Part shown: positions 2,095 through 21,023 of the stretch, in pieces
How the letters are laid out: each line of letters starts with the position of its first letter
How positions within the stretch are numbered: position 1 is the first letter of the stretch
Notes under the pieces: generated by a model
What the model was told of the DNA's origin: nothing
Databases searched by the model: none
The model's input: only the letters and a program-made list of their open reading frames with translations
Made by a program: the position numbers and the translations under genes
Origin: Clostridia bacterium
Lineage (GTDB): Bacteria > Bacillota > Clostridia > RGIG6154
Length of the DNA: 64,000 nucleotides
NCBI GenBank assembly: GCA_045660065.1
Contig: JAZRDC010000026.1
Coordinates: forward strand, 5,823-69,822
Direction of reading: 5' to 3'

Positions 2095-2119
2095 AAACAA
2101 AAAAACTTTGGAGAAGTTT

Positions 2120-3265
2120 ATGGATTTATTAGGAATAATAGCAGAATACAACCCATTTCACAATGGGCATAAGTATCATTTATTAAAATCAAAAGAAGAA
2201 TTATCTCCCGATGCAACTGTTGTTATAATGAGCGGAAATTTCACACAACGAGGCAGTTGTGCGTGTTTTGACAAATGGACACGCACAAAATGTGCATTAT
2301 TAAATGGTGCTGACCTTGTAGTTGAACTTCCTGTTACTTTTGCAACAGGCTCTGCCGAGCGATTTGCAATGGGAAGTGTTTATCTGCTTGATAAAATGGG
2401 GGTAAAAAACATTTCTTTCGGTTCAGAGTCGCCTTTATCAGAACTTGAGGCAATCGCAGAAAAACTTATTTCAGATGAATTTGAAATAAATAGTCCCTCT
2501 GAAGTCCCATTTCATATAGCACGGCAGAAAGCAGTTGATGATAACGAAATTCTTACAAAACCAAACAATATTTTGGCTATTGAGTACATTAAAGCACTGA
2601 AAAAATTAAACTCTCCAATTAAGACCGCTCGCATTGAAAGGCATCTTGCGGGCTATAATGATATGAATATAACTGACGGATTTGCTTCCGCAACAAAAGT
2701 TCGTGAACTTATTAAAAACTGTAGCAACTATTGTGATGTTATACCTGAAAATGTTTACGAAATACTTTCAAACTCAAAATTTACTGATGATGAAAGTCTT
2801 TTTGGCAGCATTAAATACTCGATTATTTCCAAAAATGCTGATGAACTAAGTGAGTTTGCTCATATACGTGAAGGAATAGAAAATAGAATATACAAATCAG
2901 TGTTTGAAGCAAGTTCATTAGATGAATTAATAAAAGAAATCAAATCAAAAAGATATACCTATACTTCAGTTTCAAGAATGCTTACCTCAATTCTTCTTGG
3001 AATTAAGAAGGATCACTTGCCCGAAAATCCTGAATATATCAGAGTTTTGGGGCTTAATGACAAAGGCGCACAAGCATTAAAACACATTAAAAACAACTGT
3101 GAATTGCCGATTATAACAAAAATTTCAACTTCTGTTGATAAATTATCGCAATCGGCATTAAAACAACTTGAAACTGACATCAAGGCAAGTGATATTTATT
3201 ATAGTTGTGCAAATATCAAGGCATCAGGTAAGCCTGATTTTGTTAATTCGCCAGTTAAACTTTAG
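2120..3265 (+). CDS. tmcAL: tRNA(Met) cytidine acetate ligase TmcAL (YlbM-type nucleotidyltransferase)
   Basis: The N-terminus MDLLGIIAEYNPFHNGHKYHL matches the YlbM/TmcAL signature EYNPFHNGH. The ORF track starts at a TTG at 2108, but the ATG at 2120 fits the family N-terminus. Confidence 0.85.
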   Translation: MDLLGIIAEYNPFHNGHKYHLLKSKEELSPDATVVIMSGNFTQRGSCACFDKWTRTKCALLNGADLVVELPVTFATGSAERFAMGSVYLLDKMGVKNISFGSESPLSELEAIAEKLISDEFEINSPSEVPFHIARQKAVDDNEILTKPNNILAIEYIKALKKLNSPIKTARIERHLAGYNDMNITDGFASATKVRELIKNCSNYCDVIPENVYEILSNSKFTDDESLFGSIKYSIISKNADELSEFAHIREGIENRIYKSVFEASSLDELIKEIKSKRYTYTSVSRMLTSILLGIKKDHLPENPEYIRVLGLNDKGAQALKHIKNNCELPIITKISTSVDKLSQSALKQLETDIKASDIYYSCANIKASGKPDFVNSPVKL

Positions 3266-3306
3266 AAAAAACCTCTTTATCAACTTGTGATAAAGAGGTT
3301 TTTATT
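3264..3306. terminator. Bidirectional rho-independent terminator between convergent tmcAL and the minus-strand glycan operon
   Basis: A perfect 12-bp stem ACCTCTTTATCA / TGATAAAGAGGT with a 5-nt loop sits at 3271-3299. It is flanked by an A-run (3264-3270) and a T-run (3300-3306). Confidence 0.6.
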
Positions 3307-3775
3307 ATTGTTCGTTCATTTCTGAAATATATGCTTCAAATTCGATATTTTTTGCTTTAAGTCTGGTGTTACTTCCTGCGCCTAAATTTTTCTTGCCGTT
3401 TAAGAAATAGCCTTCTTTTTCAACCACTGCTTTAGCGTTTACTTCAAGATAAGCGTCAAACTTACCCGGATTTACTGCTTTAACATAGGTACCGTCTGCC
3501 ATAACTTCATTTGTTTCGGCATTTATAATGGTTTTTGAAACGATTTCACCAATCTCAATACCGTCTTCATCATATAACTTTCCTGATTCAGGTAAGGCAT
3601 CTGCAGTTGACTGAATTATCTCTCCTACCTTTACAACATAAACAATGTCTGTCATTTCTCCGTTTTCACTTTTCAGAGCAGTTGAATTTGTAAATTTAAA
3701 AGCCACAAAAACTACAACTGCACATATAAAAAGAATTACAATCAAATCTATTATATTAAATCTCTTTTTCATCAT
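3305..3775 (-). CDS. Small N-terminally membrane-anchored protein (DUF4330-like), paralog B
   Basis: The 156-aa ORF has a basic N-terminus followed by one TM helix (IIDLIVILFICAVVVFVAF) and a beta-rich soluble domain. It overlaps the upstream paralog by 1 nt (ATGA). Confidence 0.5.
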   Translation of the reverse strand: MMKKRFNIIDLIVILFICAVVVFVAFKFTNSTALKSENGEMTDIVYVVKVGEIIQSTADALPESGKLYDEDGIEIGEIVSKTIINAETNEVMADGTYVKAVNPGKFDAYLEVNAKAVVEKEGYFLNGKKNLGAGSNTRLKAKNIEFEAYISEMNEQ

Positions 3776-4242
3776 TATTCTCCTTCACTTACAGTTGTTA
3801 CATTTCCATGTCCAACAAATCCAATGCTTTTAACATCTACTCTTTTGCCTACATAAATTTCGTACTCATTAACAAAGCAGGATAATTCATTACAGTTACC
3901 CACTGCATCAACTTTAACTGTTAAATCATAGCGTTCAGGAATATTAACATTTACATATTCCCCTGTCAATGTATTAAGTTCGTACTTTGTTGCATCTGTA
4001 TAGGATACATCTGAAATTGTGCCGATATTTATGATTTTTACTCCGTCAAAAAGGTCAGCACCATTTTGTACTGATTCTGCAACCTCAAGAGGAACTTCTC
4101 TGAAAAGAATTTCGTAAGAAAACTCTTGACCTGCTCCCGAAGATGAATTGTTACCTAAAATCAACCATCCTGCAACCGCTACAAGGATAACGGCCATTAC
4201 TATAACAAAATCCACGAAATTAAATTTAAGTTTCTTTTTCAT
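3775..4242 (-). CDS. Small N-terminally membrane-anchored protein (DUF4330-like), paralog A
   Basis: The 155-aa ORF has the same architecture (MKKKLKFNFVDFVIVMAVILVAVAGWLIL then a beta-rich domain). It sits immediately downstream of the GT4 gene with a 1-nt gap. Confidence 0.5.
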   Translation of the reverse strand: MKKKLKFNFVDFVIVMAVILVAVAGWLILGNNSSSGAGQEFSYEILFREVPLEVAESVQNGADLFDGVKIINIGTISDVSYTDATKYELNTLTGEYVNVNIPERYDLTVKVDAVGNCNELSCFVNEYEIYVGKRVDVKSIGFVGHGNVTTVSEGE

Positions 4243-4243
4243 A

Positions 4244-5362
4244 TTATTTTCTCCTTAATACTGACAAATAAATTTCTTCAATATTTCTTGCATTAATATC
4301 TGCAGTATATTTTTCTCTGTAAAGTTTTTCTGCACCCTCTGAAAGTTTTGTGTAGAGTGCCTTATCATCAAGCAATTTTCTCATTTTTGCTTCAAGTTCA
4401 GCACTGTTTTTACTTTCAAACATCAATCCGTTTACACCATTTATAACAAGTTCAGGATTTCCGCCGTAATCAGATGCTATAATCGGTTTACCAAGACTCA
4501 TACCTTCAAGAAGCGATAAACTTGTTGCCTCTGTACCAAAAGATGCATTAACATTAACGTCAATAATATTCATAACAGCAGTTACATCTTTTATATGACC
4601 TGTAACCAAAATGCTGTCAGACATATTTTCATCTTCAACTCTGCATTTCACATGTTCAAGATATCCGCCTGTACCGCAAATCATAAATTTAACATTATTA
4701 TAATCTTTAACAATATTTTTAGCGGCATCGATAAAGAAATCGTGGCCCTTAATATCCTCAACACGGGCAATCATTGCAAAAACAAACTCATCTTTAATTC
4801 CGTATGAATTTCTTACTTCTGTAATTTCTTCATCTGTAAATTTTCTTACAGGCTTTACCCCGTTTTTAATGACTTTGATTTTTTTCTCATTAACCCCTGC
4901 TTCTGTGAGATTATCACTTGCAGCACCTGCTACCGCAATAATTTTATCTGCGGTAATGTTGTTAGCAAATCCATTTATGAATTTACCTATTCCGTGAGTT
5001 ACTTTTGGTGAGTTCGGGAACACACTATGTCTTGTATAAACCACAGGAACTCCTGCAAGTCTTGCGGCAATTCTTGCTGAAAAACTTGCGTGAGTGTGCA
5101 CAACATCAGGTTTTTCTTTTTTGAAAATCTTCAGCAATTCACCAACTGCCTTATTTGAATAAGATCTGTTTTCAAGACCATCTGCCTCAATAATCACAGT
5201 GTTTGTTGCATCAATATTAGGTATAAGTTCGCTACCTCTTGGAACGACCACCGAAACATCAAATTTATCTCTGTCATAATGTTCCAAAAAAGCCAATATA
5301 CATCTTCCTGCGCCGCCGATATTGTGGTCGCTTGTAACATTGATAACTTTTATTTTTTTCAT
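4244..5362 (-). CDS. Glycosyltransferase family 4 (GT-B fold, GT4/RfaB-like)
   Basis: The 372-aa ORF has an N-terminal GT4 donor/acceptor domain (NIGGAGR, HTHASFSARIAARLAGVP) and a C-terminal Glycos_transf_1-like region (EGMSLGKPIIASDYGGNPELV). Confidence 0.8.
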   Translation of the reverse strand: MKKIKVINVTSDHNIGGAGRCILAFLEHYDRDKFDVSVVVPRGSELIPNIDATNTVIIEADGLENRSYSNKAVGELLKIFKKEKPDVVHTHASFSARIAARLAGVPVVYTRHSVFPNSPKVTHGIGKFINGFANNITADKIIAVAGAASDNLTEAGVNEKKIKVIKNGVKPVRKFTDEEITEVRNSYGIKDEFVFAMIARVEDIKGHDFFIDAAKNIVKDYNNVKFMICGTGGYLEHVKCRVEDENMSDSILVTGHIKDVTAVMNIIDVNVNASFGTEATSLSLLEGMSLGKPIIASDYGGNPELVINGVNGLMFESKNSAELEAKMRKLLDDKALYTKLSEGAEKLYREKYTADINARNIEEIYLSVLRRK

Positions 5363-7209
5363 ACTTTAGTCCTCCTTGAAACAATATCAACCACCGCACC
5401 TATTGCAATATATATCCAGAACAGTAAAAATACGCGATAATTATACCACACATTATCAAACATTCCCTGCAGTAAAAATCCACTCATTGCCGCCACTAAT
5501 CCCGATGAAATTAACTTCATATTTTTGTCGTCTGAATGTTTCATTACTGCAAAAAGTTTTTTGTAATATAATAAAATTATCAAAACAAACGCAATTGCAC
5601 CTACAATACCTGTTTCAGTAAGTATAACAAGATAAAGATTGTGCGGATGTGGGGCGGTAATTGCAGAGTAGGCATAGAAAGGATATACTGCATTAAATGC
5701 ATCTGTGCCCAATCCGATACCTGTTACCCAGAAATCTTTGAGCATATTGAGAGTTCCTTCCCAGATATAAACTCTGTATGATGTTGAACTGTCCGCTAAA
5801 TTTCCTACACTGGCAATTCTTGAAATAATGCTTTCAGGAAGGAAAAATACCGATACTGCACCTAATGCACAAAAGGCTAAAAACAGTTTTCGTTTGCTTA
5901 AGAACAAGAAAATAACTAAAGCAAAAACCAACCCAATCCAGCATCCTCTTGAATAAGTGAACACAAGAGAAATTAAAGAGCAAACGCCTGCAAACAAATG
6001 GATTGCTTTGAATTTATAGTCCTTTGTAATAAAAAAGCAAATTACAGATGTAAGAATTATTAAAATCAGATACTCGCCAAACACATTTGGATTTCCGAAA
6101 AATGAAACTACACGGCCTGAAATATCCTCAAACATTTCAGTATCTATCCAGGTATTCTGTTTATCAAATCCACTGAAATGCTGATAAATACCATAAAGTG
6201 AAACAGGAATTGAGAACAATGAAATACCATTTAATACATTAATAAGAATTTTTTTCTCTGCAAAAATTCTTATTAATGCGTATGTTACAAGCAAAAATGC
6301 AATATACACCAATGCTATTTTTATACTTGCATTTCTTGCATATGAAAACATTGCCGCAAGTGCAAATGCAATACCCATAAACAAAAGATACATATTAAGT
6401 AAGTAATTTTTGCTGAACAACTTATCGGTATACCCTAAAACGGATTTGATTGCTACACACAAAAACAATGCCAATCCGCCGCCAACCATTGCCATAGTAG
6501 GCATAAAAGGCAATACACAAACATACAAAAATGCTACTTGTGAAGTAAAATTAAATCCTATTGCTACAACTGCAAATAATAAGACTACAGCTAAAATCGG
6601 TAAGATGCCGAATATTAAAGATAATACTCCTAAAGCGACACCTGTAAACAAAAAGGTTTTTGCGTTATAAGCACCCTTTAATTCATCACTTTTTGATGTT
6701 ACAAATTTTCCAAAAACAAATGAATTTGAAAACAGTTCTGCTATGCTTTTGTTAAATATTATCAAAAATAAGCCTAAAATTACAATCAACGCGCAAAGTA
6801 TCAATGCGGTGTTTTTGGCATTCATTGCAAAACTTGCAATCAGGGCTACAATCCCCCAAGACAGTAAAAGTATTCCGGGATATTTAAGCGGAACTAACAA
6901 AAATTCATTACACCAATTTGCTGTAAATGAAATAATCTTACTGTTTTTCACAGAAGATGAAAACCATAAAAAGCATCTTCTGAAAAGTGCAGCAATTGCT
7001 GAAAATAGTTTTCCGTACCTTGCTCCGTACACTTCATCTGCATTACCATCAGAAGAAGCAACATTAACAAGCAAACTTTTTTCAGCACTTTTATTAAACT
7101 TACAGTTACATTTGCTTAAAAAGTTCCATAAAAAACTTTTTTTCAAGGTTGCCATAAATAAACTGTAAATTTTAATAATAATATTTACAAAAAAAGATTC
7201 TCTTAACAC
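5359..7209 (-). CDS. O-antigen ligase / Wzy_C family polytopic membrane protein (WaaL/Wzy-like)
   Basis: The 616-aa ORF has many TM helices. It carries the Wzy_C hallmarks YTYSRGCWIGL, a GIGLGT loop and the PHPHNLYL histidine motif. It overlaps the GT4 gene by 4 nt. Confidence 0.7.
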   Translation of the reverse strand: MLRESFFVNIIIKIYSLFMATLKKSFLWNFLSKCNCKFNKSAEKSLLVNVASSDGNADEVYGARYGKLFSAIAALFRRCFLWFSSSVKNSKIISFTANWCNEFLLVPLKYPGILLLSWGIVALIASFAMNAKNTALILCALIVILGLFLIIFNKSIAELFSNSFVFGKFVTSKSDELKGAYNAKTFLFTGVALGVLSLIFGILPILAVVLLFAVVAIGFNFTSQVAFLYVCVLPFMPTMAMVGGGLALFLCVAIKSVLGYTDKLFSKNYLLNMYLLFMGIAFALAAMFSYARNASIKIALVYIAFLLVTYALIRIFAEKKILINVLNGISLFSIPVSLYGIYQHFSGFDKQNTWIDTEMFEDISGRVVSFFGNPNVFGEYLILIILTSVICFFITKDYKFKAIHLFAGVCSLISLVFTYSRGCWIGLVFALVIFLFLSKRKLFLAFCALGAVSVFFLPESIISRIASVGNLADSSTSYRVYIWEGTLNMLKDFWVTGIGLGTDAFNAVYPFYAYSAITAPHPHNLYLVILTETGIVGAIAFVLIILLYYKKLFAVMKHSDDKNMKLISSGLVAAMSGFLLQGMFDNVWYNYRVFLLFWIYIAIGAVVDIVSRRTKV

Positions 7210-7212
7210 ACC

Positions 7213-8742
7213 CTACACCTTTCTTTTAATCAGATTTTTAATTTCTTCTGTACGAAGTACAATGAGAAAAATAATGTAAACTACGAGTAAAAGTCCTGCA
7301 CAAGCACCAAGAAGTAAAAATTTGCCGACCAAACCTGTAAAATAGCCTGAACACAAACTGAAAATCACTTTTGAAATTACAGAAGCCACACATCCCGCTA
7401 AAATGGTTTTTATGAAGGTTTTACCCAAAGAAGAAAATGCAACTTCTTTGAGATTTTTCTTTAAAAGTCTTAAAAGATTTGCTGCACTTACTGTTGCCGC
7501 TATTGCCGCTGCGAAAGCAAGTCCGCCTACACCGAATGATTTATACAAAGTAAAACTGAAAATCACATTCACGGCTATGGTAAGAAAAGCGTTTTTCATT
7601 GGTACAACAGAATTTTGCATAGAATAAAAACTTTTATTCAAAATCTCCTGCAATCCATAACCAAGCATTCCAAAACTGTAAAAATACAGTGCAGTTGAAG
7701 TCATAGCAACTGATTTTTCATCAAATGCACCTCGCATATACACAACTTCTACAATCTGATATGAATATGCCAAAAATACCATCATTACAGGTATAATAAA
7801 AATAATACCTGATTTTAATGCAGACTCTATAACCTCTGCACTTTTTTTACGGTTATTATCCGCAAAAAGGCGTGAAAGTTCAGGCAAAATCAAATTTGTA
7901 ACAGACATTGTAAACACGCCGACTATTATGATATACAGTTTATTTGCGTAATTTATATAACTCACTGCATTTCCGCCATCTATAAAAGATGCAAGATATG
8001 TGTTTATCATTACGTTAAGCGGTTGTGCCCACGAACTTAATAAAATGGGCAAAGCAAGTCTGTATACCTTTTTCATCCCGGGATGTAAAAAGTTAAATGC
8101 TAAACCAAATTTGTATTTAAATTTAAAAAGTGCAGGCAATAAAATCAACAGTTGCATCGCCCAACCTATAAGCATTGCTGCAGCAAGTCCGAAAATACCT
8201 GCAAATTTATTCAAAAACACAAAATATAATATTGCAGTTAGATTCGAGGCTATACTCATTGCCGCGGGGATTTTAAATTCTCCGTATGATTGTACTATAC
8301 CTGCATATGAATAAGCAACTGCAGTAAAAAGAAGTGATGGAAACATTATCACAAGTAATTTTGATGCAAGTGAAGTGGTAGTTTCATCAAATCCCGTTGC
8401 AAGTAAAGATACGATGCTTTTAGAAAAAATCACACCAAACAATACCATAGCAACAGAAATAATCAAAACAATGCCAACAAAATTACCTGCAAATTCGTCA
8501 GCCGTCTCTTTACCTTTTTTCTGAAGATATTCATTGAAAACAGGAACAAATGCTGAAACTATAGCAAGTCCCAACACCATATCAAAAAAATTTAAGGGTA
8601 TCTGGGATGCAACTAAAAATGCTGACGCATCATTACCTGTACCATAGTATCCCGCAAGCATAATTTCTCTTAGTTGACCTAAAAGTTTTGCCGCCATCAT
8701 TATGACGAACATACCCGATACCGTCTTTAAAGCTTTATTCAT
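7213..8742 (-). CDS. murJ: Lipid II flippase MurJ (MviN)
   Basis: The 509-aa ORF has about 14 TM helices and an N-terminus GQLREIMLAGYYGTGNDASAFLVASQIPLNFFDMVLG characteristic of MurJ/MviN. Confidence 0.85.
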   Translation of the reverse strand: MNKALKTVSGMFVIMMAAKLLGQLREIMLAGYYGTGNDASAFLVASQIPLNFFDMVLGLAIVSAFVPVFNEYLQKKGKETADEFAGNFVGIVLIISVAMVLFGVIFSKSIVSLLATGFDETTTSLASKLLVIMFPSLLFTAVAYSYAGIVQSYGEFKIPAAMSIASNLTAILYFVFLNKFAGIFGLAAAMLIGWAMQLLILLPALFKFKYKFGLAFNFLHPGMKKVYRLALPILLSSWAQPLNVMINTYLASFIDGGNAVSYINYANKLYIIIVGVFTMSVTNLILPELSRLFADNNRKKSAEVIESALKSGIIFIIPVMMVFLAYSYQIVEVVYMRGAFDEKSVAMTSTALYFYSFGMLGYGLQEILNKSFYSMQNSVVPMKNAFLTIAVNVIFSFTLYKSFGVGGLAFAAAIAATVSAANLLRLLKKNLKEVAFSSLGKTFIKTILAGCVASVISKVIFSLCSGYFTGLVGKFLLLGACAGLLLVVYIIFLIVLRTEEIKNLIKRKV

Positions 8743-8751
8743 AAAAAAATA

Positions 8752-9003
8752 TTATTCTCCGTCAATATAGAACTTTACAATTTCTTCTAAAAGTTCATCA
8801 CGCTCAAGTTTGGTGATAATCGCTCTTGCGTTAAGATGACCTGTTATATATGATGGGTCTCCTGATAAAAAGTACCCTACTATCTGATTTATTGGATTAT
8901 ACCCTTTTTCTTTCAGTGCATCATAGACAGAATTCATTATCTCTCTTGCACGATCTTTAGTATCTTTTGTAACCTTAAATCTTACTGTTTCATTTGGATT
9001 CAT
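8752..9003 (-). CDS. ireB: IreB family regulatory phosphoprotein (UPF0297)
   Basis: The protein matches IreB/YrzL through [11 protein letters not shown]…[51 protein letters not shown] chose the internal ATG at 9003 with RBS GGGGAGGAG, because the longer ORF start at 9066 lies inside the promoter. Confidence 0.8.
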
Positions 9004-9037
9004 TTTATATACTCCTCCCCATACTATTATATATAAA

Positions 9038-9066
9038 ATTATAGCATATTTCAAAGCACAATTCAA
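9038..9066 (-). promoter_or_regulatory. sigma-A promoter for the ireB-murJ-ligase-GT4-DUF4330 operon (TTGAAT-N17-TATAAT)
   Basis: On the minus strand, TTGAAT is the reverse complement of 9061-9066, the spacer is 17 nt, and TATAAT is the reverse complement of 9038-9043. The ireB RBS and ATG follow. Confidence 0.5.
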
Positions 9067-9115: not shown

Positions 9116-10156
9116 CTATTCAAAAATAACAGGTAATTTTGTTTCTGCAGATTTATAAAGTCCATCTATAATTTCCATCAACTTAACAGCCTCTGATAAT
9201 TTAACAATACATTCAGTCCCGTTTAAAATACAATCAACAAAATGGTCAATCTCTCTTTCGTAACCGGAAACAGAAGGAATATCCGGCTGATTTTCAACAA
9301 AACATTCATCAGAAATTTCCACCATTTTAATCGCATTGTTTTCAAATCTTGCTCCGGCTTTTGATCCGGTAATTTCATAATTTCGGCCTACATTTATTGA
9401 ATTTAAGATTTTTGCAGTTTTAACTCTGATACTTGCACCATTTTCCAGAACAACAAATCCTTCAATAGAACTTTCTATACTTTTCTCATAAGTATTGGTA
9501 TCAAAAGATGCCCAACCTTTTGAATTAAATCTTACCGGAAGATCTTTATTCACGAAACTTTCGTTTGCCGCTACATATTTAACATCGGGATACCCCATTA
9601 AGTACATTAACACGTCCAAGTCGTGTATGCACTCATCTATTAATACTCCGCCTCCCTTTTCGCGACTTGCAAACCATCCGTTACTGGGTGAGCAACGATT
9701 CACACGGAAACATTCTGCACTTACAAATTCACCCATTTTGCCTGCCTCAATATATTTTTTCAAATATTGTGTGTGATTGCTAAATCTGCATACAAAAGCA
9801 AACATGAGAATTTTACCGCATTCTTCTGCAACTTTTTCGCATTCACGAACTTCTTGTGCGTTAAGCATCGGAGGTTTTTCGCACAAAACATGTTTACCAC
9901 TTTTTAACGCATCTATAACAATTTGTTTATGTGTAAAAGTAGGTGTTATGATACTCACTGCTTCAATAGATTCATCTTGCAACAATTCTTTATAATCACT
10001 ATAACAATCTTTGATTCCAAATTCATCAGCACGAGATCTGGCATTTTCGATGTTCATATCCGCTATTGCAACTATCTCGCAATTATCAAGTTCTTTAACA
10101 GCTTTTAGCTGGTATGAAGCAATATTACCTGCTCCTATCATTCCCATCTTTAACAT
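9116..10156 (-). CDS. Gfo/Idh/MocA family NAD(P)-dependent oxidoreductase (possible sugar dehydrogenase)
   Basis: The N-terminal Rossmann motif MGMIGAGNIASYQLKA, the EKP motif (HVLCEKPP) and the 346-aa length fit the GFO_IDH_MocA N- and C-terminal domains. Confidence 0.8.
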   Translation of the reverse strand: MLKMGMIGAGNIASYQLKAVKELDNCEIVAIADMNIENARSRADEFGIKDCYSDYKELLQDESIEAVSIITPTFTHKQIVIDALKSGKHVLCEKPPMLNAQEVRECEKVAEECGKILMFAFVCRFSNHTQYLKKYIEAGKMGEFVSAECFRVNRCSPSNGWFASREKGGGVLIDECIHDLDVLMYLMGYPDVKYVAANESFVNKDLPVRFNSKGWASFDTNTYEKSIESSIEGFVVLENGASIRVKTAKILNSINVGRNYEITGSKAGARFENNAIKMVEISDECFVENQPDIPSVSGYEREIDHFVDCILNGTECIVKLSEAVKLMEIIDGLYKSAETKLPVIFE

Positions 10157-10226
10157 ATTATCTCCTCCTGCGTATAATTATACATTAAAAACATTTTTTG
10201 TCAATACTAAATTGGCATTCTAATTG

Positions 10227-11106: not shown

Positions 11107-13311
11107 TTAAATTAAAGACAATTGTTCCCCATCTTTATCTTCTGCTATAAGTTTTGCACCTGCCGCAGGAAGATTGCGGGATTTATATGGTTTTGCCTCT
11201 GTAATTCCTGAATTTTCAAACAGTGTAAGATTTATCATTTTACCACGTTTTCCCGGATTAAATGTCTTAACACCCTGTGAACTTCTTGTTACTTTTTCAG
11301 GAATCATTGAAGTGTTAAACACAAGTGCCTTTTCGTTGCTACCGAATGCTACCAAATCTCTGTCTTCTTCAATATAAACAGATGAAACAAGCGGACTATG
11401 GTCTGAATATGCTTTTGTGAGCATCTTTCTGTTAGTTTTCGTAACATATGCGCTAAGCGGAACTTTACATGTTCTTCCGTCTTCAAAACCGAACACCATA
11501 TATCCCTTATATTCGCCCGCAACCACAGCATTTAAAATCATTTCACCTTCGCCAAGACCTAAAAGATTTGACATATATTCGCCTAAATCACTCGCCTTAA
11601 CGCTTGGGATTTCGTAAATTTTCATCTTGTATACATTACATTGATTTGAGAACAATAACAATTCTTCTTTATTGGAAGTATCAATTTCCAACATAATTTC
11701 ATCAGTCTCTTTAAGTTTCTGAACATTACTTGCTCTTAAAGATACAAGAGAAATCTTTTTGATATAACCCTGCTTGGTAACAAAGATTTTAAGTGAAAAA
11801 TCATCAATGAATTTTTCAGGCACAAAATCTATTTTGTTTTCTGCAGCAGAAATTATTTCTGTAACTCTGTCTTTACCATATTTTTTTGATATTTCCTGAA
11901 GTTGTTTTGAAATAAGATTTTTAATGCGTCTGTCGCTGTCAAGTGTTATTTTAATATCTTCAATTTCACGCTCTAAATCGGCAATATCTTTGATGTTTTT
12001 CAAAATGTATTCTTTGTTTAAATTTCTCAATTTAATTTCAGCAACAAAGTTTGCCTGAATTTCATCAATTCCAAAGCCTTGCATAAGAGTTGGAACAACA
12101 TCTGCATCTTTTTCAGTTTCTCTTATTATTTTAATTGCTTTATCAATATCAAGAAGGATTTTTTCCAAACCTTTAAGCAAATGAAGTCTTGCTTCTTTTT
12201 TTGACAAGTCAAATCGGAGTGTGCGTTTTACGCAATCCATTCTGAATCTGACCCATTCACAAAGAATTTGCTTAACACCCAAAACTCTCGGCATTCCGTC
12301 AATAAGCAAATTAAAGTTACAACTGAATGTATCCTGCAGAGTTGTTGTTTTAAAGAGCATTGTCATTAATTTATCAACATCTGTACTGCGTTTAACATCA
12401 ATGGCAATTTTAAGACCTGACAAGTCAGTTTCATCTCTTACATCTGTAACATCTTTAATTTTTCCCGCCTTAATCTGCTCAATAATTTTGTCGATAATTA
12501 CTTCAGCGGTAGTAGAGTATGGAATTTCTGTAATTTCGATAACATTGTTCTTTTTATCATAATTATATTTTGAACGGATTTTGAAACTGCCTCTGCCAGT
12601 TTCATAAATTTCACGCATTTCCTGCTCATCATATAAAATCTGACCGCCGCCTGGAAAATCAGGTGCTTTGATGATAGGAATCAAATCCACATTTTCATCA
12701 CGCATATAGGCAATGGTTGCTTCGCAGATTTCTCTTAAGTTAAAACTGCAGATTTTACTTGCCATACCTACTGCAATACCTTCATTTGGGTTAACCAAGA
12801 TATTCGGGAAAGTTACCGGAAGAAGTTTCGGCTCTTTCATTGTAGCATCGTAGTTATCCTGGAACTCAACGGAATCTTTATCGATTTCTGCAAAAAGTTC
12901 TTTACAGATTTCATCAAGTTTTACTTCTGTATATCTTGATGCGGCAAATGCCATATCTCTTGAAAACTGCTTACCAAAGTTACCCTTTGAGTCAACAAAC
13001 GGATGAAGCAGTGCTGCATTACCTTTTGTAAGACGGACCATTGTTTCATATATTGCCATATCGCCGTGAGGGTTGAGTCTCATTGTCTGTCCTACAACAT
13101 TTGCAGATTTAGTTTTATTTCCTGTTAAAAGCCCCATTTTATACATTGTATACAAAAGTTTTCTGTGAGAAGGCTTAAAACCATCAATTTCAGGGATTGC
13201 TCTCGAAACAATTACACTCATAGCATAGGGCATATAATTAGTTTCTAAAGTATCCGCTATTTTTTGTTCAGTAAAATTCATTTTATCCTCCAAATCACGA
13301 AATATCGGCAA
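11107..13311 (-). CDS. parC: Type IIA topoisomerase subunit A (ParC-like, topoisomerase IV; possibly a second GyrA)
   Basis: The N-terminus has the GyrA/ParC motifs AMSVIVSRAIPEIDGFKPSHRKLLYTMY… The 734-aa length is short for GyrA, so the C-terminal beta-pinwheel is reduced. The start is probably the internal ATG (MNFTEQ, ~13281), since the long ORF overlaps parE by 17 nt. Confidence 0.75.
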   Translation of the reverse strand: MPIFRDLEDKMNFTEQKIADTLETNYMPYAMSVIVSRAIPEIDGFKPSHRKLLYTMYKMGLLTGNKTKSANVVGQTMRLNPHGDMAIYETMVRLTKGNAALLHPFVDSKGNFGKQFSRDMAFAASRYTEVKLDEICKELFAEIDKDSVEFQDNYDATMKEPKLLPVTFPNILVNPNEGIAVGMASKICSFNLREICEATIAYMRDENVDLIPIIKAPDFPGGGQILYDEQEMREIYETGRGSFKIRSKYNYDKKNNVIEITEIPYSTTAEVIIDKIIEQIKAGKIKDVTDVRDETDLSGLKIAIDVKRSTDVDKLMTMLFKTTTLQDTFSCNFNLLIDGMPRVLGVKQILCEWVRFRMDCVKRTLRFDLSKKEARLHLLKGLEKILLDIDKAIKIIRETEKDADVVPTLMQGFGIDEIQANFVAEIKLRNLNKEYILKNIKDIADLEREIEDIKITLDSDRRIKNLISKQLQEISKKYGKDRVTEIISAAENKIDFVPEKFIDDFSLKIFVTKQGYIKKISLVSLRASNVQKLKETDEIMLEIDTSNKEELLLFSNQCNVYKMKIYEIPSVKASDLGEYMSNLLGLGEGEMILNAVVAGEYKGYMVFGFEDGRTCKVPLSAYVTKTNRKMLTKAYSDHSPLVSSVYIEEDRDLVAFGSNEKALVFNTSMIPEKVTRSSQGVKTFNPGKRGKMINLTLFENSGITEAKPYKSRNLPAAGAKLIAEDKDGEQLSLI

Positions 13312-15268
13312 GATCTAAATACTTACCGCCAAATTCAGCAATATAATCTTTTCTTCCCTGAAGGTTGTCGCCTAAAAGCACATCAAACATCATCTTGGTT
13401 GTTTCTTCGTCCTGAGGCATAACTTTGATAAGTCGTCTTGTTTCAGGATTCATTGTGGTTCTCCACATCATTTCAGGTTCATTTTCACCAAGACCTTTTG
13501 AACGCTGAATTGTGCATTTCTGACCTTCAAGTTTTTTAAGAATTTCAACTTTTTCCGCTTCATTATATGCAAAATAAGTTTCGCCTTTGGAAGTAATTTC
13601 AAAAAGCGGAGATTCTGCTATAAACACTTTGCCTTCTTTAATAAGAGTCGGCACCAAAGTATAAAGCATTGTAAGAATAAGTGTTCTGATCTGGAAACCG
13701 TCAACATCGGCATCAGTACAGATGATAATTTTATTCCATCTTAAAGCATTTAAATCAAACATTTCCTGAGAATGTTTTGTTTTAATTTCAACTCCGCATC
13801 CCAAAACTTTAAGCAAATCGGTTATAATTTCACTGGCGAAAATTTTGGAATAATCTGCTTTAAGACAGTTTAATATTTTACCTCTTACAGGAATAATTGC
13901 CTGAAATTCTGCATCTCTGCCCTGCTTACATGAGCCCATAGCAGAATCACCTTCCACGATGTAAACTTCGCGTCTTGAAACATCTTTGGTTCTGCAGTCA
14001 ATAAATTTCTGCACTCTGTTTGTTACATCGGTATTTCCGATCAATTTCTTCTTATATGAAATTTTTGCTTTTTCAGCATTTTCTCTTGAACGCTTATTTA
14101 ACAAAATCTGATCAGCAACTTTATCTGCAACAGCCTTATTTTCAATAAAGAAAATATCAAGTTGTTCTTTTAAGAATTCAGTCATTGTATCCTGAATGAA
14201 TTTGTTACTGATAGCCTTTTTAGTCTGATTTTCATAACTTGTTATTGTAGAAAAACTGTTTGATACAAAAATCAAACTGTCTTCAACATCAACAAAAGTG
14301 ATTTTTGCTTCGTTATTTTTATATTTATTTGAATTTTTTATAAGTTTATCTATTGAATAAACAAATGCATTTCTTACCGCTTTATCAGGCGAACCGCCGT
14401 GCTCTAAGAAACTTGAGTTGTGATAATATTCAATTAAGTTAACTTCATTATTGAAGCAAAATGCACAGGAAAGTTTTACTTTATATTCAGGCTTGTCCTC
14501 TCTGTCACGGCCTTTTCTTTCTGTTTCAATATACTTAACTTCTGAAAAACTCTTTTCATTTTCAAGTTTTTTGATGTAGTCAACAATACCGTCAGGGTAA
14601 ACAAATTCAAAATTGGTATTTTCCTTGTGGTCAATAAACTTAAACTTTAAGCCTTTATTTACCACCGCCTGTTTTTTCATAACATTAATAAAATATTCAG
14701 AAGGAATATTTACATCAGTAAATACCTGGTTATCAGGTTTCCATGTAATCTGGGTTCCTGTAACTTTACTGTCTGTTGGTTCTTTGAAAAGACCACCGAT
14801 GTTTTCACCTTTTTCAAAATGAAGAGAATACTTAAATCCGTCACGATGAACAACAACATCCATAAATTCAGAAGCATACTGTGTAGCGCAGGCACCAAGA
14901 CCATTTAAACCAAGTGAAAACTCATAGTTATCATCTGAATTGTTTTTATATTTACCACCTGCATAAAGTTCACAAAATACAAGTTCCCAGTTGTATCTTT
15001 CTTCTTTTTCGTTATAATCTACAGGCACACCTCTGCCTTTGTCAGTTACTTTAATTGAATTATCTGAAAATCTTTCAAGTGTAATGAGATTACCGTAACC
15101 TTCTCTGGCTTCATCAATTGAGTTTGATAAAATTTCAAAAACAGAATGCTGACAACCTTCAATACCGTCTGACCCGAACATAACACCAGGTCTTAAACGA
15201 ACCCTGTCAGCACCTTTTAAGGAGGTGATACTCTCGTTACCGTACTCAGTTTTTTTCAAAAAACCCAT
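13295..15268 (-). CDS. parE: Type IIA topoisomerase subunit B (ParE-like, topoisomerase IV)
   Basis: The 657-aa ORF has the GHKL ATPase motifs (HSVFEILSNSIDEA, GLNGLGA), a toprim domain (EGDSAMGS, DADVDG) and a PLxGK-like motif. Confidence 0.8.
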   Translation of the reverse strand: MGFLKKTEYGNESITSLKGADRVRLRPGVMFGSDGIEGCQHSVFEILSNSIDEAREGYGNLITLERFSDNSIKVTDKGRGVPVDYNEKEERYNWELVFCELYAGGKYKNNSDDNYEFSLGLNGLGACATQYASEFMDVVVHRDGFKYSLHFEKGENIGGLFKEPTDSKVTGTQITWKPDNQVFTDVNIPSEYFINVMKKQAVVNKGLKFKFIDHKENTNFEFVYPDGIVDYIKKLENEKSFSEVKYIETERKGRDREDKPEYKVKLSCAFCFNNEVNLIEYYHNSSFLEHGGSPDKAVRNAFVYSIDKLIKNSNKYKNNEAKITFVDVEDSLIFVSNSFSTITSYENQTKKAISNKFIQDTMTEFLKEQLDIFFIENKAVADKVADQILLNKRSRENAEKAKISYKKKLIGNTDVTNRVQKFIDCRTKDVSRREVYIVEGDSAMGSCKQGRDAEFQAIIPVRGKILNCLKADYSKIFASEIITDLLKVLGCGVEIKTKHSQEMFDLNALRWNKIIICTDADVDGFQIRTLILTMLYTLVPTLIKEGKVFIAESPLFEITSKGETYFAYNEAEKVEILKKLEGQKCTIQRSKGLGENEPEMMWRTTMNPETRRLIKVMPQDEETTKMMFDVLLGDNLQGRKDYIAEFGGKYLDLADIS

Positions 15269-17803: not shown

Positions 17804-18123
17804 ATTGTCCATTTTGCGGAAAAGAAATTAATGAAAATGAAACCTATTGCAAATCTTGCGGTAATCCGCTTACTGCAAAAGCGCGTGCGTTTTCAACATT
17901 GCCACAGACTAAAAAAACAAGAATGCTTAAAGTAAGCGACTATTTACTTATGTTTTTATTATCAATTATTTTACCTGTAAACTACATTATGTGGTTTATC
18001 TGGTTGTTTAACCCAAAAACAAATGTAAATAAAAAGAACTACGCAGCAGCAGCGTTAATTTTTAACACTTGCCTTGTAGTTCTTATAGCAGCAGGTTATG
18101 CAATAAACAAATTTTTAATTTAA
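17800..18123 (+). CDS. Zinc-ribbon domain membrane protein
   Basis: The N-terminal CPFCGKEINENETYCKSCGN is a CxxC…CxxC zinc ribbon, followed by two TM helices. It overlaps the phosphoesterase stop by 4 nt (ATGA), suggesting translational coupling. Confidence 0.5.
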   Translation: MNCPFCGKEINENETYCKSCGNPLTAKARAFSTLPQTKKTRMLKVSDYLLMFLLSIILPVNYIMWFIWLFNPKTNVNKKNYAAAALIFNTCLVVLIAAGYAINKFLI

Positions 18124-19538
18124 AATCTGAAATCTCTCATACCGCTTTCTATGTCAGAAATGTTGCTCTTTGCAATGTTTCTGACTTTTTCATTTGGTAC
18201 ATTTTCAAGTTCTTTTTCAATAAGTTTATTTCCGATTTCTTTAGTTTTTTCAGAAGCGTAATCTTCAACAAATTCTTTTAAAGTTATAAGTGCGTTCGGA
18301 TGACAGCAATTCTGGATTTGCCCTGTTTTGCAAAGTTGCATAAATCTATCTCCTGTTCTTCCTTCTCTGTAACAGGCTGTGCAAAAACTCGGAATGTATC
18401 CAAGTTCCATAAGCCATCTTACAACTTCATCCAATGTGCGTTTATCGCTTACATCAAACTGTTCTGAACCGTCTTCTTCAGGCTCGTCTTCTGAGTATCC
18501 GCCAACACTTGTTCTTGATGCTCCACTTATCTGCGATACCCCAAGTGGCAGAACCTTTTCTCTGCACTCTTTGCTTTCTCTTGTTGAAATAATCATACCT
18601 GTATATGGAACTGCAATTCTGATGCAGGCAACGATTTTTGCAAAAATCTCATCATCAATACCATTATCAAAAACACTTGGGTCAATATCACTTGCGCGTT
18701 TAATTCTTGGAACACTGATTGTATGTGGGCCAACACCGTGCACCGCTTCTAAGTGTTCTGCGTGCATCAAAAGTCCCGCAAATTCATACTTATACATTTC
18801 AAGACCAAACAAAACCCCAAGGCCTACATCATCAATTCCGCCTTTCATTGCTCTGTCCATCGCCTCTGTATGGTAAGCGTAGTTGTGTTTTGGACCTGTT
18901 GGATGTAATTTTTCATAACTTTCTTTATGATATGTTTCCTGGAACAAAATGTATGTTCCAATTTCTGCCTCTTTTAATTTTCTGTAATTTTCAACAGTAG
19001 TGGCCGCAATATTTACATTTACGCGTCTGATTGCACCATTTTTATGCTTAACGCTGTAAATTGTTTTAATGCAGTCTAAAATATACTCAATCGGGTTATT
19101 AACAGGATCTTCCCCTGCTTCAATAGCAAGGCGCTTATGTCCCATATCCTGAAGTGCAATAACTTCTTTTTCCACTTCTTCCTGTGTAAGTTTTTTTCTT
19201 GGAATTTCTTTATTTTTTGCGTGATATGGGCAATATACGCAACCGTTTACGCAGTAGTTTGAAAGATAAAGAGGTGCAAACATTACAATTCTGTTTCCAT
19301 ACAACTCTTTTTTAATTTTGTTTGCAAGAGCATACATTTCTTTAATTATTTCTTCATCTTCACAAGCAAGTAGAACAGATGCTTCTCTGTGAGAAAGGCC
19401 TTTGCAGTCTTCTGCTTTTTTTAAGATTTCTTTTACTAAACTAATATTATTTTTATTGGCCTCTGCATAGTTTAAGGTTTCGATAATTTCATCATGTGAA
19501 ATAAACTCTTCAGCCTTCATTGAATTTTTATTATACAT
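18120..19538 (-). CDS. hydG: [FeFe]-hydrogenase maturase HydG (radical SAM tyrosine lyase)
   Basis: The 472-aa ORF has the radical-SAM CX3CX2C motif (CVNGCVYC) and a C-terminal auxiliary-cluster CxxC…C motif (CTACYREG…NCC). Its length distinguishes HydG from ThiH. Confidence 0.7.
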   Translation of the reverse strand: MYNKNSMKAEEFISHDEIIETLNYAEANKNNISLVKEILKKAEDCKGLSHREASVLLACEDEEIIKEMYALANKIKKELYGNRIVMFAPLYLSNYCVNGCVYCPYHAKNKEIPRKKLTQEEVEKEVIALQDMGHKRLAIEAGEDPVNNPIEYILDCIKTIYSVKHKNGAIRRVNVNIAATTVENYRKLKEAEIGTYILFQETYHKESYEKLHPTGPKHNYAYHTEAMDRAMKGGIDDVGLGVLFGLEMYKYEFAGLLMHAEHLEAVHGVGPHTISVPRIKRASDIDPSVFDNGIDDEIFAKIVACIRIAVPYTGMIISTRESKECREKVLPLGVSQISGASRTSVGGYSEDEPEEDGSEQFDVSDKRTLDEVVRWLMELGYIPSFCTACYREGRTGDRFMQLCKTGQIQNCCHPNALITLKEFVEDYASEKTKEIGNKLIEKELENVPNEKVRNIAKSNISDIESGMRDFRF

Positions 19539-19550
19539 AGCATTTCCTCC

Positions 19551-21014: not shown

Positions 21015-21023
21015 GAAAAAACT

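Follow-up and report, generated by a model that had tools for sequence, protein, structure and literature searches.

Pyruvyltransferase, TagA and SLH proteins together are the hallmark of systems that make pyruvylated secondary cell-wall polymers. In Bacillus anthracis and Paenibacillus alvei, the pathway comprises TagO, TagA, CsaB, the MATE-like flippase Bas5279 and WpaA/WpaB of the Wzy/WaaL clan (PMC6030368), and the anionic-polymer (PSII) locus of Clostridioides difficile contains an mviN/murJ homologue (PMC4973711). A related membrane protein, the cyanobacterial IctB, is an essential 'bicarbonate transporter' of unclear function (PMC4594306, PMC9477826). The locus described here is a six-gene operon of an uncultured gut Clostridia bacterium, lying in a 64-kb stretch of DNA that was analysed as a whole (the window; Table 1). 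The operon would probably carry out late steps in the assembly of an undecaprenyl-diphosphate (Und-PP)-linked secondary cell-wall glycopolymer (probability about 0.55), with a putative acceptor and a presumed role for two DUF4330 proteins.

Table 1. Features of the operon and its flanking signals (positions in the window).
Feature	Position	Strand	Evidence or description
Operon ireB-murJ-Wzy_C-GT4-DUF4330-A-DUF4330-B	3305-9003	minus	six genes
Sigma-A-type promoter region	9026..9066	minus	two overlapping -35/-10 pairs
Ribosome-binding site GGGGAGGAG	9012..9020	minus	8 nt 5' of ireB ATG; read from sequence
ireB, 83 aa, IreB/ReoM-type regulatory phosphoprotein	8752..9003	minus	PF06135 and NF003997
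murJ, 509 aa, MOP-superfamily MurJ/MviN-type lipid-linked-precursor flippase	7213..8742	minus	TIGR01695
WaaL-fold Wzy_C protein, 616 aa	5359..7209	minus	PF04932, 90 bits
GT4 glycosyltransferase, 372 aa, soluble	4244..5362	minus	PF00534 (3.5e-34) and PF13439 (2.6e-25)
DUF4330-A, 155 aa	3775..4242	minus	PF14221, 54.5 bits, 2.1e-14
DUF4330-B, 156 aa (155 aa from second Met)	3305..3775	minus	PF14221, 75.3 bits (cut-off 27.6)
Bidirectional intrinsic terminator	3267..3303	both	16-bp stem, 5-nt loop, U-runs on each strand

The operon was confirmed, and its gene arrangement lies far beyond chance expectation. All six domain identities exceeded curated cut-offs in profile scans, and the Pfam and NCBIfam matches agreed with the by-eye assignments of the original prediction (IreB, MurJ, a Wzy_C/WaaL-like protein, GT4 and two DUF4330 proteins). 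The genes were indeed as tightly packed as had been claimed, every junction being 9 nt or less; from ireB to DUF4330-B, the coordinates give a 9-nt gap, a 3-nt gap, a 4-nt overlap (ATGA) of the GT4 start with the Wzy_C stop, a 1-nt gap and a 1-nt overlap. The predicted sigma-A promoter was located as TTGAAT (9066-9061)-N17-TGcTATAAT, with a TG-extended -10 at 9043-9038, and overlaps a second pair, TTGAAA (9054)-N17-TATAAT (9031-9026). For promoter-like matches as such, 54 were found where 43 are expected in DNA this AT-rich, so they are not rarer than chance. The arrangement TTGAAT/TTGAAA-N17-(TG)TATAAT/TATACT recurred 5' of ireB at a similar distance in at least eight other species, in which the flanking intergenic DNA had diverged, and the pair with its TG extension was conserved in loci L013, L001, L017, L016, L014, L042, L036 and L038. 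The bidirectional terminator was likewise borne out, with folding energies of -19.1 kcal/mol (z -6.0) on the minus strand and -21.8 kcal/mol (z -7.0) on the plus strand. This terminator is common to the operon and a convergent plus-strand gene (2108-3265).

A survey of 80 species-representative genomes of the window's clade yielded 64 testable loci. murJ lay directly 5' of the Wzy_C gene in 62 and GT4 3' of it in 62, and two DUF4330 genes came next in 61, so the expectation that the small proteins are syntenic with Wzy_C and GT4 held nearly everywhere. A sister clade whose Wzy_C measures 470 aa was sampled as 80 loci from metagenomes, which grouped into 59 clusters at 90% identity; here GT4 followed Wzy_C in 55 of 56 loci. 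The five-gene core murJ-Wzy_C-GT4-DUF4330-DUF4330 recurred in hundreds of species, its order being kept at Wzy_C identities down to approximately 32%, in the cultured Monoglobus pectinilyticus and in distant contigs; the module is conserved in a broad set of gut Clostridia, most of them uncultured. Since every further gene family around the module was confined to 11 of 85 loci or fewer and the genes 3' of it were heterogeneous, the block is self-contained. Neither a priming transferase nor a nucleotide-sugar gene was recurrent near the module in these 85 loci, a point against the polymer reading.

Two parts of the original prediction did not hold, and two further suggestions, that ligation is coordinated with lipid II flipping and that the small proteins control chain length, are speculative and gained no support. 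IreB matched PF06135 at 125 bits (1.2e-36) and NF003997 at 127.8 bits (cut-off 91), and its N-terminal ETVRF motif includes Thr6, but the gene, described as hard-wired to the unit, was found 5' of murJ in no more than 22 of the 58 species of the window's clade and nowhere among the sister-clade loci, and is therefore an add-on. Its placement ahead of the module in this lineage would tie expression to the PASTA-kinase/IreB wall-synthesis circuit. The Gfo/Idh/MocA gene noted just upstream of the module does not belong to it: a 12/12 consensus promoter and a terminator hairpin, both its own, set it apart as a separate unit, and it was missing from all related loci compared and never syntenic.

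MurJ scored 343.8 bits against the lipid II flippase equivalog TIGR01695 (cut-off 235.6) and matched solved MurJ structures (E 2e-39). Because it passes this cut-off and the window encodes just one other MOP protein, which is SpoVB-like, it may simply be the housekeeping flippase. These features, and the position of ireB, a wall-synthesis regulator, as first gene of the operon here and in the 22 species, would suit a pathway centred on peptidoglycan, in which murJ supplies the housekeeping lipid II flippase and the WaaL-fold enzyme, GT4 and the DUF4330 proteins act on lipid II or nascent peptidoglycan. A glycan might be ligated onto lipid II right after flipping, as had been proposed, or glycan strands might be modified or terminated. 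Some loci have peptidoglycan genes beside the module (L095 with ddl and murI, L008 with the dcw cluster), and some sister-clade blocks have no adjacent murJ (L094; 14 of 53 loci), so that the flippase may be a shared housekeeping one. Against this reading, no WaaL-fold enzyme with peptidoglycan or lipid II as acceptor is known to us. Furthermore, of the cavity residues of the operon MurJ (K18, R24, F52, D53 and K270 in E. coli numbering), F52 and D53, which stand in place of the R52/R53 of E. coli MurJ, did not vary among the 71 module-linked MurJ proteins; as R52 is reported to be essential in E. coli, substrate recognition by the module MurJ may differ. Taken together with the gene context of the sister clade, which points to a separate polymer, a function centred on peptidoglycan was judged unlikely.

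That context was systematic. A GT4+PS_pyruv_trans fusion lay directly 3' of the block in 38 of 38 testable sister-clade loci, WecG/TagA then followed in 5 of 35, and in 14 of 24 an SLH-domain protein, often NAGPA+SLH, was encoded no more than 6 kb upstream. Because the sister-clade block sits with this pyruvyltransferase, TagA and SLH set, assembly of a secondary cell-wall polymer is supported, and the general idea of a module for a lipid-linked envelope glycan gains support with it; the earlier interpretation of the operon as a whole is partly supported. In L087, two SLH proteins lay directly 3' of the module. SLH genes lay near approximately 14 of 80 long-form loci, with no clear enrichment over chance in SLH-rich genomes. 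The window operon has no pyruvyltransferase and no TagA-like gene, a phmmer search over the 64 kb found neither an SLH nor a pyruvyltransferase gene, and no other glycan-pathway domain came up when about 50 of the 64 window ORFs of at least 120 aa, including all those of at least 200 aa except the two topoisomerase-like ORFs at 11107-15268, were scanned against Pfam. The link of the window operon to the polymer is therefore by homology to a Wzy_C clade approximately 33% identical to its own.

Within the Wzy_C protein, residues 225-603 form an IctB-like core, preceded by an N-terminal extension of predicted-cytoplasmic helices and extra TM helices. Its His and Arg motifs, including H[NSQ]x9Gxx[GTY], were present, as had been noted by eye, and invariant, which argues against a degenerate enzyme. 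With this fold and motif, the protein would act as either a polymerase or a ligase on a putative acceptor. GT4 reached no equivalog cut-off in the NCBIfam scan; its best matches, far under cut-off, were polysaccharide glycosyltransferases, and its closest solved relatives were mixed (TarM, BshA-like and PglA). GT4 also scored with alpha-monoglucosyldiacylglycerol synthase (94 bits) and the glycolipid-anchor transferases IagA/BgsA, and Firmicutes possess a Wzy_C-family ligase in pneumococcal TacL. The operon could accordingly be imagined to produce a lipoglycan or a lipoteichoic acid-type polymer, GT4 making a glycolipid anchor onto which a TacL-like Wzy_C protein moves an Und-PP-linked chain. 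However, every glycolipid match of GT4 was far under its cut-off, and the sister-clade pyruvyltransferase, TagA and SLH genes fit a peptidoglycan-linked rather than a membrane-anchored polymer, making this explanation very improbable.

The small proteins proved to be members of a large conserved family, PF14221, of which 3088 representatives of 50%-identity clusters were found. The searchable literature contained no mention of DUF4330. DUF4330-A has an N-terminal KKKLKFNFVD motif and a TM helix followed by an extracytoplasmic β-domain; DUF4330-B has a TM helix (8-30), a disordered linker (30-40) and an all-β domain (42-155), and the two are 24% identical (E 5e-5). Their pairing and topology were supported by natural fusions: DUF4330~DUF4330 in 12 of the top 150 cluster representatives, and a single GT4~DUF4330 fusion (L057) that puts the DUF4330 N-terminus in the cytoplasm. 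One natural Wzy_C~GT4 fusion (L087) was also found; this and the L057 fusion are possibly assembly frameshifts.

Small anchored proteins beside a Wzy_C enzyme also call to mind O-oligosaccharyltransferases, which share the Wzy_C domain and His motif and are in some cases encoded beside a membrane-anchored substrate such as a pilin. The Wzy_C protein would then be of the PglL/TfpO/WsaB type and glycosylate the DUF4330 or S-layer/SLH proteins; Ser and Thr make up 26% of the membrane-proximal DUF4330 linker versus 16% of the β-domain. This enrichment is modest, however, and none of the linker Ser/Thr residues is conserved. The invariant DUF4330 residues sit in the TM helix (D10), which is not a glycosylation site, and a pilin-like N-terminus was ruled out by the absent Gly at -1 and the short helix. 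A subunit fits better than a substrate with the GT4 fusions and with the near-universal association of DUF4330 with murJ and a cytoplasmic GT4. Protein O-glycosylation was considered the least probable of the explanations.

Under the favored model, in which a secondary cell-wall polymer is assembled, a priming enzyme encoded elsewhere would make an Und-PP-sugar, which GT4, judging from its family, would extend at the cytoplasmic face. The MurJ-type MOP flippase would, on the same grounds, move the lipid-linked unit outward, and may double as the lipid II flippase of the cell. At the outer face, the IctB-like WaaL-fold enzyme would transfer the glycan from Und-PP to the acceptor via the conserved site formed by His523, Arg421 and Arg479. 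The two DUF4330 proteins, each with one TM helix bearing the invariant Asp and an outward β-domain, would form a heterodimer serving as an obligatory accessory subunit, e.g., a co-polymerase or an acceptor-side adaptor.

At the level of single proteins, the transferase shares with the O-antigen ligase WaaL (7TPJ) the H[NSQ]x9Gxx[GTY] motif, the conserved Arg residues and a presumed Und-PP-linked donor. Sequence identity to WaaL is just 11%, a HMMER search with the Wzy_C protein gave no PDB match, the N-terminal extension of approximately 220 aa is additional, and a lipid A-core acceptor is not expected if the host is monoderm like other sporulating Clostridia. IctB (TIGR00947) was the best curated match for every module Wzy_C tested, over the whole 425-position model (159-213 bits, E down to 8e-63; next family 1e-11 to 1e-23), with scores well under the equivalog cut-off of 366 bits; IctB is roughly 470 aa long, and the short-form relatives (approximately 470 aa) are similar in length.

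At the level of whole pathways, the module follows the same logic as Wzx/Wzy/Wzz systems, combining a cytoplasmic glycosyltransferase, a MOP flippase, an outer-face Wzy_C-clan enzyme and small bitopic accessories, but it has no priming enzyme, a single glycosyltransferase and no Wzz/PCP-family protein, DUF4330 having one TM helix and a β-domain rather than two TM helices and a coiled coil. The C. difficile PSII locus, which also holds several glycosyltransferases and LCP genes, provides a precedent for murJ/mviN inside a clostridial wall-polymer locus serving surface-protein anchoring. That locus differs in anchoring CWB2 rather than SLH proteins, in its large size, with manC, pgm2 and a second Und-PP synthase gene, uppS2 (PMC4973711), and in that a DUF4330 pair is not described there. 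With the B. anthracis/P. alvei pathway, the module shares a MOP-superfamily flippase, a Wzy/WaaL-clan membrane protein and an Und-PP-linked repeat and, in the sister clade, genes for a pyruvyltransferase, a TagA-like protein and SLH proteins. The window operon lacks tagO and csaB; its flippase is a bona fide MurJ/MviN-type protein, its transferase is an IctB-like PF04932 protein whereas WpaA/B belong to PF13425, and GT4 and two DUF4330 proteins, of which no report was found for that pathway, are fixed parts of the module.

All six open reading frames of the minus-strand operon ireB-murJ-Wzy_C-GT4-DUF4330-A-DUF4330-B (3305-9003) were confirmed by curated family models, which bore out the gene annotation and coordinates of the original prediction. 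From ireB onwards, the genes are separated by 9 nt and then by 3 nt, next overlap at ATGA, then stand 1 nt apart and finally overlap by 1 nt. Promoter-like matches alone were not significant in the AT-rich DNA of the window (54 found, 43 expected). However, at least eight other species share the -35/extended -10 pair in front of ireB, although the remaining spacer differs; the pair is absent where ireB comes directly after pheT.

Features of the operon and of the adjacent oxidoreductase gene, in window coordinates
Feature	Coordinates	Strand	Support
Gfo/Idh/MocA oxidoreductase gene	9116-10156 (gene), in the stretch 9116-10204	minus	own promoter and terminator
Operon promoter TTGAAT-N17-TGcTATAAT	9066-9038	minus	sequence
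Second promoter TTGAAA-N17-TATAAT, overlapping the first, then GGGGAGGAG ribosome-binding site		minus	sequence
ireB		minus	PF06135 125.2 bits (vs 25); NF003997 127.8 bits (cut-off 91)
murJ	7213-8742	minus	TIGR01695 343.8 bits (cut-off 235.55)
Wzy_C protein, 616 aa		minus	PF04932 90.3 bits (gathering score 31.7)
GT4 glycosyltransferase		minus	PF13439 89.8 bits; PF00534 118.3 bits
DUF4330-A, DUF4330-B		minus	PF14221 54.5 and 75.3 bits (gathering score 27.6)
Terminator, 16-bp hairpin with U-runs on both strands	3267-3303		folds of -19 and -22 kcal/mol, z about -6 and -7

The oxidoreductase gene just upstream, which had been noted as a possible sugar dehydrogenase, could not be retained as part of the module. 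It is preceded by a perfect (12/12) promoter, TTGACA-N16-TATAAT, and followed by an AT-rich terminator hairpin (-14.9 kcal/mol, z -6). No homologue was found in any of the 85 related loci, and only in the window genome does such a gene lie between DUF3792 and ireB. Its own signals and its absence from all relatives exclude membership, and the gene looks like a separate unit inserted in this lineage. The best models, inositol 2-dehydrogenase and UDP-GlcNAc 3-dehydrogenase, both scored far under their cut-offs. At the other end of the operon, a plus-strand nucleotidyltransferase gene with a HIGH motif (PF05636, 2108-3265) converges on the terminator, and a minus-strand SGNH/GDSL esterase gene with a GxDLY N-terminal domain lies at 871-1971; neither is kept beside the module in relatives.

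The surroundings of the operon are of housekeeping type, and the window also carries a SEDS-bPBP pair, PBP2, minD and an uppS-cdsA-dxr block. Its NusA groups with MAGs that bear the name 'Clostridia bacterium'. The presence of spoIIIA genes, gpr, yabQ and a SpoVB-like gene identifies the host as a sporulating member of the Clostridia. The SpoVB-like gene (31564-33153, minus strand) encodes a second MOP-family protein, whose best match, SpoVB TIGR02900, reached 264 bits against a cut-off of 372; lying beside the gpr germination protease gene, it presumably encodes a sporulation-specific flippase. The SEDS protein, which is FtsW/RodA/SpoVE-like, is encoded on the minus strand at 18120-22241 together with a class B PBP that is short (487 aa) and has a PBP_dimer_2 domain, adjoining a radical-SAM/BATS protein; a second PBP2-type gene lies at 61591-63624 and minD at 60794-61576. 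T-box or riboswitch leaders often stand upstream of such housekeeping genes in Firmicutes. Across the whole 64-kb window, including the stretch upstream of an ileS-like gene (53887-56994) and other housekeeping operons, Rfam gave 0 families at gathering score.

Conservation of the module was determined by scanning one genome per species with the Wzy_C alignment as query. This returned at least 599 stretches, of which at least 592 were confirmed to carry the module, and at least 491 metagenome stretches carry it as well. The best 80 loci of the species scan, all from uncultured Clostridia, Oscillospiraceae, Ructibacterium, Ruminococcus or Eubacteriales MAGs, were subjected to ORF calling and searched with the window proteins and the DUF4330 profile. 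Among these, murJ lay directly upstream of Wzy_C and GT4 directly downstream in 62 of 64 testable loci each, and two DUF4330 genes followed GT4 in 61 of 64. Exact-protein look-ups recovered the same order at 31-47% DUF4330 identity. The cultured Monoglobus pectinilyticus shares this order, and RefSeq gives the genes there only generic names. GT4 was absent from a few loci (L008, L073 and L076). No further gene family recurred near the module in more than 11 of 85 loci, and the first downstream gene varied (ABC transporters, trigger factor, methyltransferases), which argues that the five-gene core from murJ to DUF4330-B is a self-contained unit. The upstream ireB gene was present in 22 of 58 testable loci. 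The original interpretation was partly supported: the general idea of an envelope-glycan assembly module stood together with its annotation, the tie to ireB proved optional and the oxidoreductase fell outside it.

IreB itself matched its family over the full length, above curated cut-offs, and its N-terminus, MNPNETVRF, contains Thr6, which we take to be the phospho-acceptor by analogy with E. faecalis IreB and Listeria ReoM, with the PASTA kinase presumably the phosphorylating enzyme. The scanned ORFs of the window include no kinase gene, and any role of ireB in the operon is putative. The window MurJ could be aligned from end to end with MurJ proteins of solved structure (PDB, E 2e-39 to 9e-37). 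All 71 module-linked MurJ sequences have K for R18 of E. coli, R for R24, F for R52, D for R53 and K/R for R270, so that an invariant Phe-Asp replaces Arg52-Arg53; the window protein (K18, R24, F52, K270) keeps three of the four positive charges of the cavity and has lost R52. Judged by these residues, module-linked MurJ is a distinct subfamily without one cavity arginine, and its substrate range may differ from that of E. coli MurJ. The GT4 protein carries the two-domain GT-B signature (Glyco_transf_4 and Glycos_transf_1); its searches reached no specific equivalog and no close characterised relative.

The Wzy_C protein has a WaaL-type fold by fold comparison, the only approach that matched it to the PDB, where phmmer and profile searches found no sequence homologue. 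The original prediction had noted His and Arg motifs in this ligase-like protein. Indeed, the ligase motif H[NSQ]x9Gxx[GTY] is present as H523-N524-x9-G534-xx-G537, and R366, R421, R479, R592, D356, D473 and D585 are among the residues invariant in 13 sequences down to 29% identity. With this motif and this set of invariant residues, the protein is very probably an active enzyme. An acceptor other than lipid A-core is expected, since the host is a sporulating Clostridia bacterium. A role as a TacL-like lipoglycan ligase was weighed for this enzyme and appears very improbable.

The Wzy_C protein begins with an extension of approximately 220 residues, in which predicted cytoplasmic helices are joined by extra TM helices. 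Residues 225-603 matched the entire model of the IctB family (TIGR00947), which was the best NCBIfam match for all 13 aligned homologues and seven further relatives. The window protein scored 178.8 bits and the relatives 159-213 bits, far ahead of the next family and in every case below the equivalog cut-off of 366.4 bits. On this scoring, the Wzy_C proteins are a sister group of the IctB family and not members of it. The module places close relatives of IctB in a genomic context for the first time.

DUF4330-A and DUF4330-B share 24% identity and belong to a family with 3088 representatives of 50%-identity clusters in a profile search (E ≤0.001). No paper in the literature that could be searched mentions DUF4330, and an exact look-up of the window DUF4330-B sequence returned no record. 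The structure model of DUF4330-B (pLDDT 83.5) consists of a TM helix (8-30), a disordered linker and an all-β domain (42-155) with pLDDT >90. The N-terminus is basic and carries the motif (K/R)(F/I)(N/S)(I/V)(I/V)D, the Asp of which was unchanged in all 69 of the diverse members compared. Under the positive-inside rule, the basic N-terminus predicts that the β-domain faces outward. A fusion of GT4 to DUF4330 at L057, one of three loci with a single DUF4330 gene, agrees with this orientation. Fusions that combine one TM helix with two β-domains make up twelve of the top 150 cluster representatives, which argues that both paralogues act next to each other at the outer face. Protein O-glycosylation with DUF4330 as the substrate was considered here as well and seems a shade less probable even than the TacL-like role.

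Several family members place more than one β-domain behind a single TM helix: three to four in P0280 (540 aa), and two in P0146, P0147 and P0164 (about 290 aa each). The β-domain is therefore a repeatable extracytoplasmic module. Eleven stretches matched by the DUF4330 profile in P0246 (3144 aa) were treated as spurious, since Pfam finds no DUF4330 in this protein. A prepilin identity was also rejected: K-F-N-I-I-D resembles G|FTLIE, but there is no Gly at -1, and the helix spans only about 23 residues before the disordered linker and β-barrel.

Two related loci carry unusual gene fusions. At L087 (7713-14144), an 874-aa ORF fuses Wzy_C and GT4 and is followed by one DUF4330 gene and then by a pair of paralogues (522 and 540 aa) with SLH domains, each of which also has repeats of an unassigned domain at its N-terminal end. 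At L057 (6843-12622), the GT4-DUF4330 fusion is a 529-aa ORF; a gene for an NAD-dependent sugar epimerase/dehydratase precedes a short-form Wzy_C gene, and murJ is not adjacent. Each fusion was seen once and could be an assembly error.

The polymer that the module might serve was approached through a sister clade whose Wzy_C proteins, of about 470 aa, have no N-terminal extension and share about 33% identity with the long form. The clade was first met through the distant DUF4330 matches L093 and L094 and was sampled in a metagenome scan of 80 loci (59 clusters at 90% identity). GT4 and two DUF4330 genes were each found in 55 of 56 testable loci, and murJ lay upstream in 39 of 53. Directly after the DUF4330 pair, a fusion of GT4 and polysaccharide pyruvyltransferase was present in all 38 testable loci, followed in 5 of 35 by a WecG/TagA-type transferase. 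In 14 of 24, the 6 kb upstream encoded a protein with an SLH domain, which was often combined with a phosphodiester-glycosidase domain of the NAGPA type. Pfam confirmed the partner assignments on two example loci. Pyruvyltransferase, TagA and SLH ligands together are a signature of pyruvylated secondary cell-wall polymers.

Large secreted proteins are encoded directly upstream of murJ at L118 (3950-6283), L149 (3272-6208) and many of the other sister-clade loci (L115-L173). They combine a NAGPA domain with three SLH repeats, and that of L149 also has Big_2 and SH3_3 domains. Such proteins are candidate enzymes for cleaving the phosphodiester bond that joins the wall polymer to peptidoglycan.

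Partners of this kind were also seen in four long-form lineages. A pyruvyltransferase gene adjoins the module at L005/L006, L007 (with WecG) and L034, and two SLH proteins directly follow it at L087; at L057 only a second GT4, downstream of the module, occupies the place. SLH genes near long-form loci as a whole (about 14 of 80) were judged indistinguishable from chance in SLH-rich genomes.

Parallels exist in described systems. The Bacillus anthracis model assigns flipping and polymerisation or ligation to a MATE-like flippase and to WpaA/WpaB of the Wzy/WaaL clan (PMC6030368), and in Clostridioides difficile a murJ/mviN homologue lies within a wall-polymer locus (PMC4973711). Given these parallels and the pyruvyltransferase/TagA/SLH context of the sister clade, we favour, at a probability of about 0.55, the reading that the window operon is a conserved late-stage machine of a secondary cell-wall polymer pathway. 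GT4 would act on the inner face, on a glycan presumably borne by a lipid carrier. MurJ-type flipping would follow, and the IctB-like WaaL-fold transferase would act on the outer face, as polymerase or ligase towards a putative acceptor, with a DUF4330 heterodimer as a fixed accessory.

Several caveats bear on this reading. Neither a pyruvyltransferase nor an SLH gene was found by phmmer in the operon or its 64 kb, and Pfam scans of about 50 of the 64 window ORFs of at least 120 aa gave no other glycan-pathway domain. The long- and short-form enzymes share only about 33% identity, no priming enzyme recurs beside the module, and the window MurJ could be no more than the housekeeping lipid II flippase. 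These points keep alive a peptidoglycan-centred explanation, in which the substrate of the WaaL-fold enzyme is lipid II or nascent peptidoglycan; we regard it as unlikely, though well ahead of the lipoglycan and protein-glycosylation alternatives. Under the wall-polymer reading, gut Clostridia have in this module a candidate machine that is compact and conserved very widely, and if the link holds, functions could be assigned to a DUF, an IctB-like clade and a variant MurJ subfamily.

A more speculative extension concerns IctB, which is essential in cyanobacteria and whose function is disputed; as a 'bicarbonate transporter' it has found wide use in engineering crop and plant yield. The literature searched on ictB has nothing on its gene neighbours or function. 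Mutants of ictB could not be fully segregated in cyanobacteria, and the function of IctB is described as unresolved (PMC4594306, PMC9477826). The cyanobacterial outer membrane depends on a pyruvylated, peptidoglycan-linked polysaccharide to which it is tethered via SLH domains (PMC9163127). It is conceivable, and in our estimate doubtful, that murJ, the IctB-like enzyme, GT4 and the DUF4330 pair constitute the polymerase or ligase of SLH-anchoring, often pyruvylated wall polymers, and that the IctB family is the orthologous enzyme. If true, the essentiality of ictB would be explained by the SLH-tethered outer membrane, the 'bicarbonate transporter' would be reassigned, and DUF4330 would represent a new type of co-polymerase or adaptor.

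For the steps in which the secondary wall polymers of Gram-positive bacteria, which hold S-layer and SLH proteins, are polymerised and attached, the only proteins known to have been named are candidates of the Wzy/WaaL clan in Bacillus anthracis. The window system would work like a Wzx/Wzy-type wall-polymer pathway. No priming phosphoglycosyl transferase and no Wzz/PCP co-polymerase was found in the operon or recurrently in the 85 related loci, and DUF4330 stands where an accessory protein would be. Compared with described wall-polymer systems, the window module has a bona fide MurJ-type flippase with the F52/D53 variant cavity, an enzyme that is IctB-like and not WpaA/B-like, an obligatory DUF4330 pair without a solved or studied relative, and an extremely compact gene order that is widely conserved.
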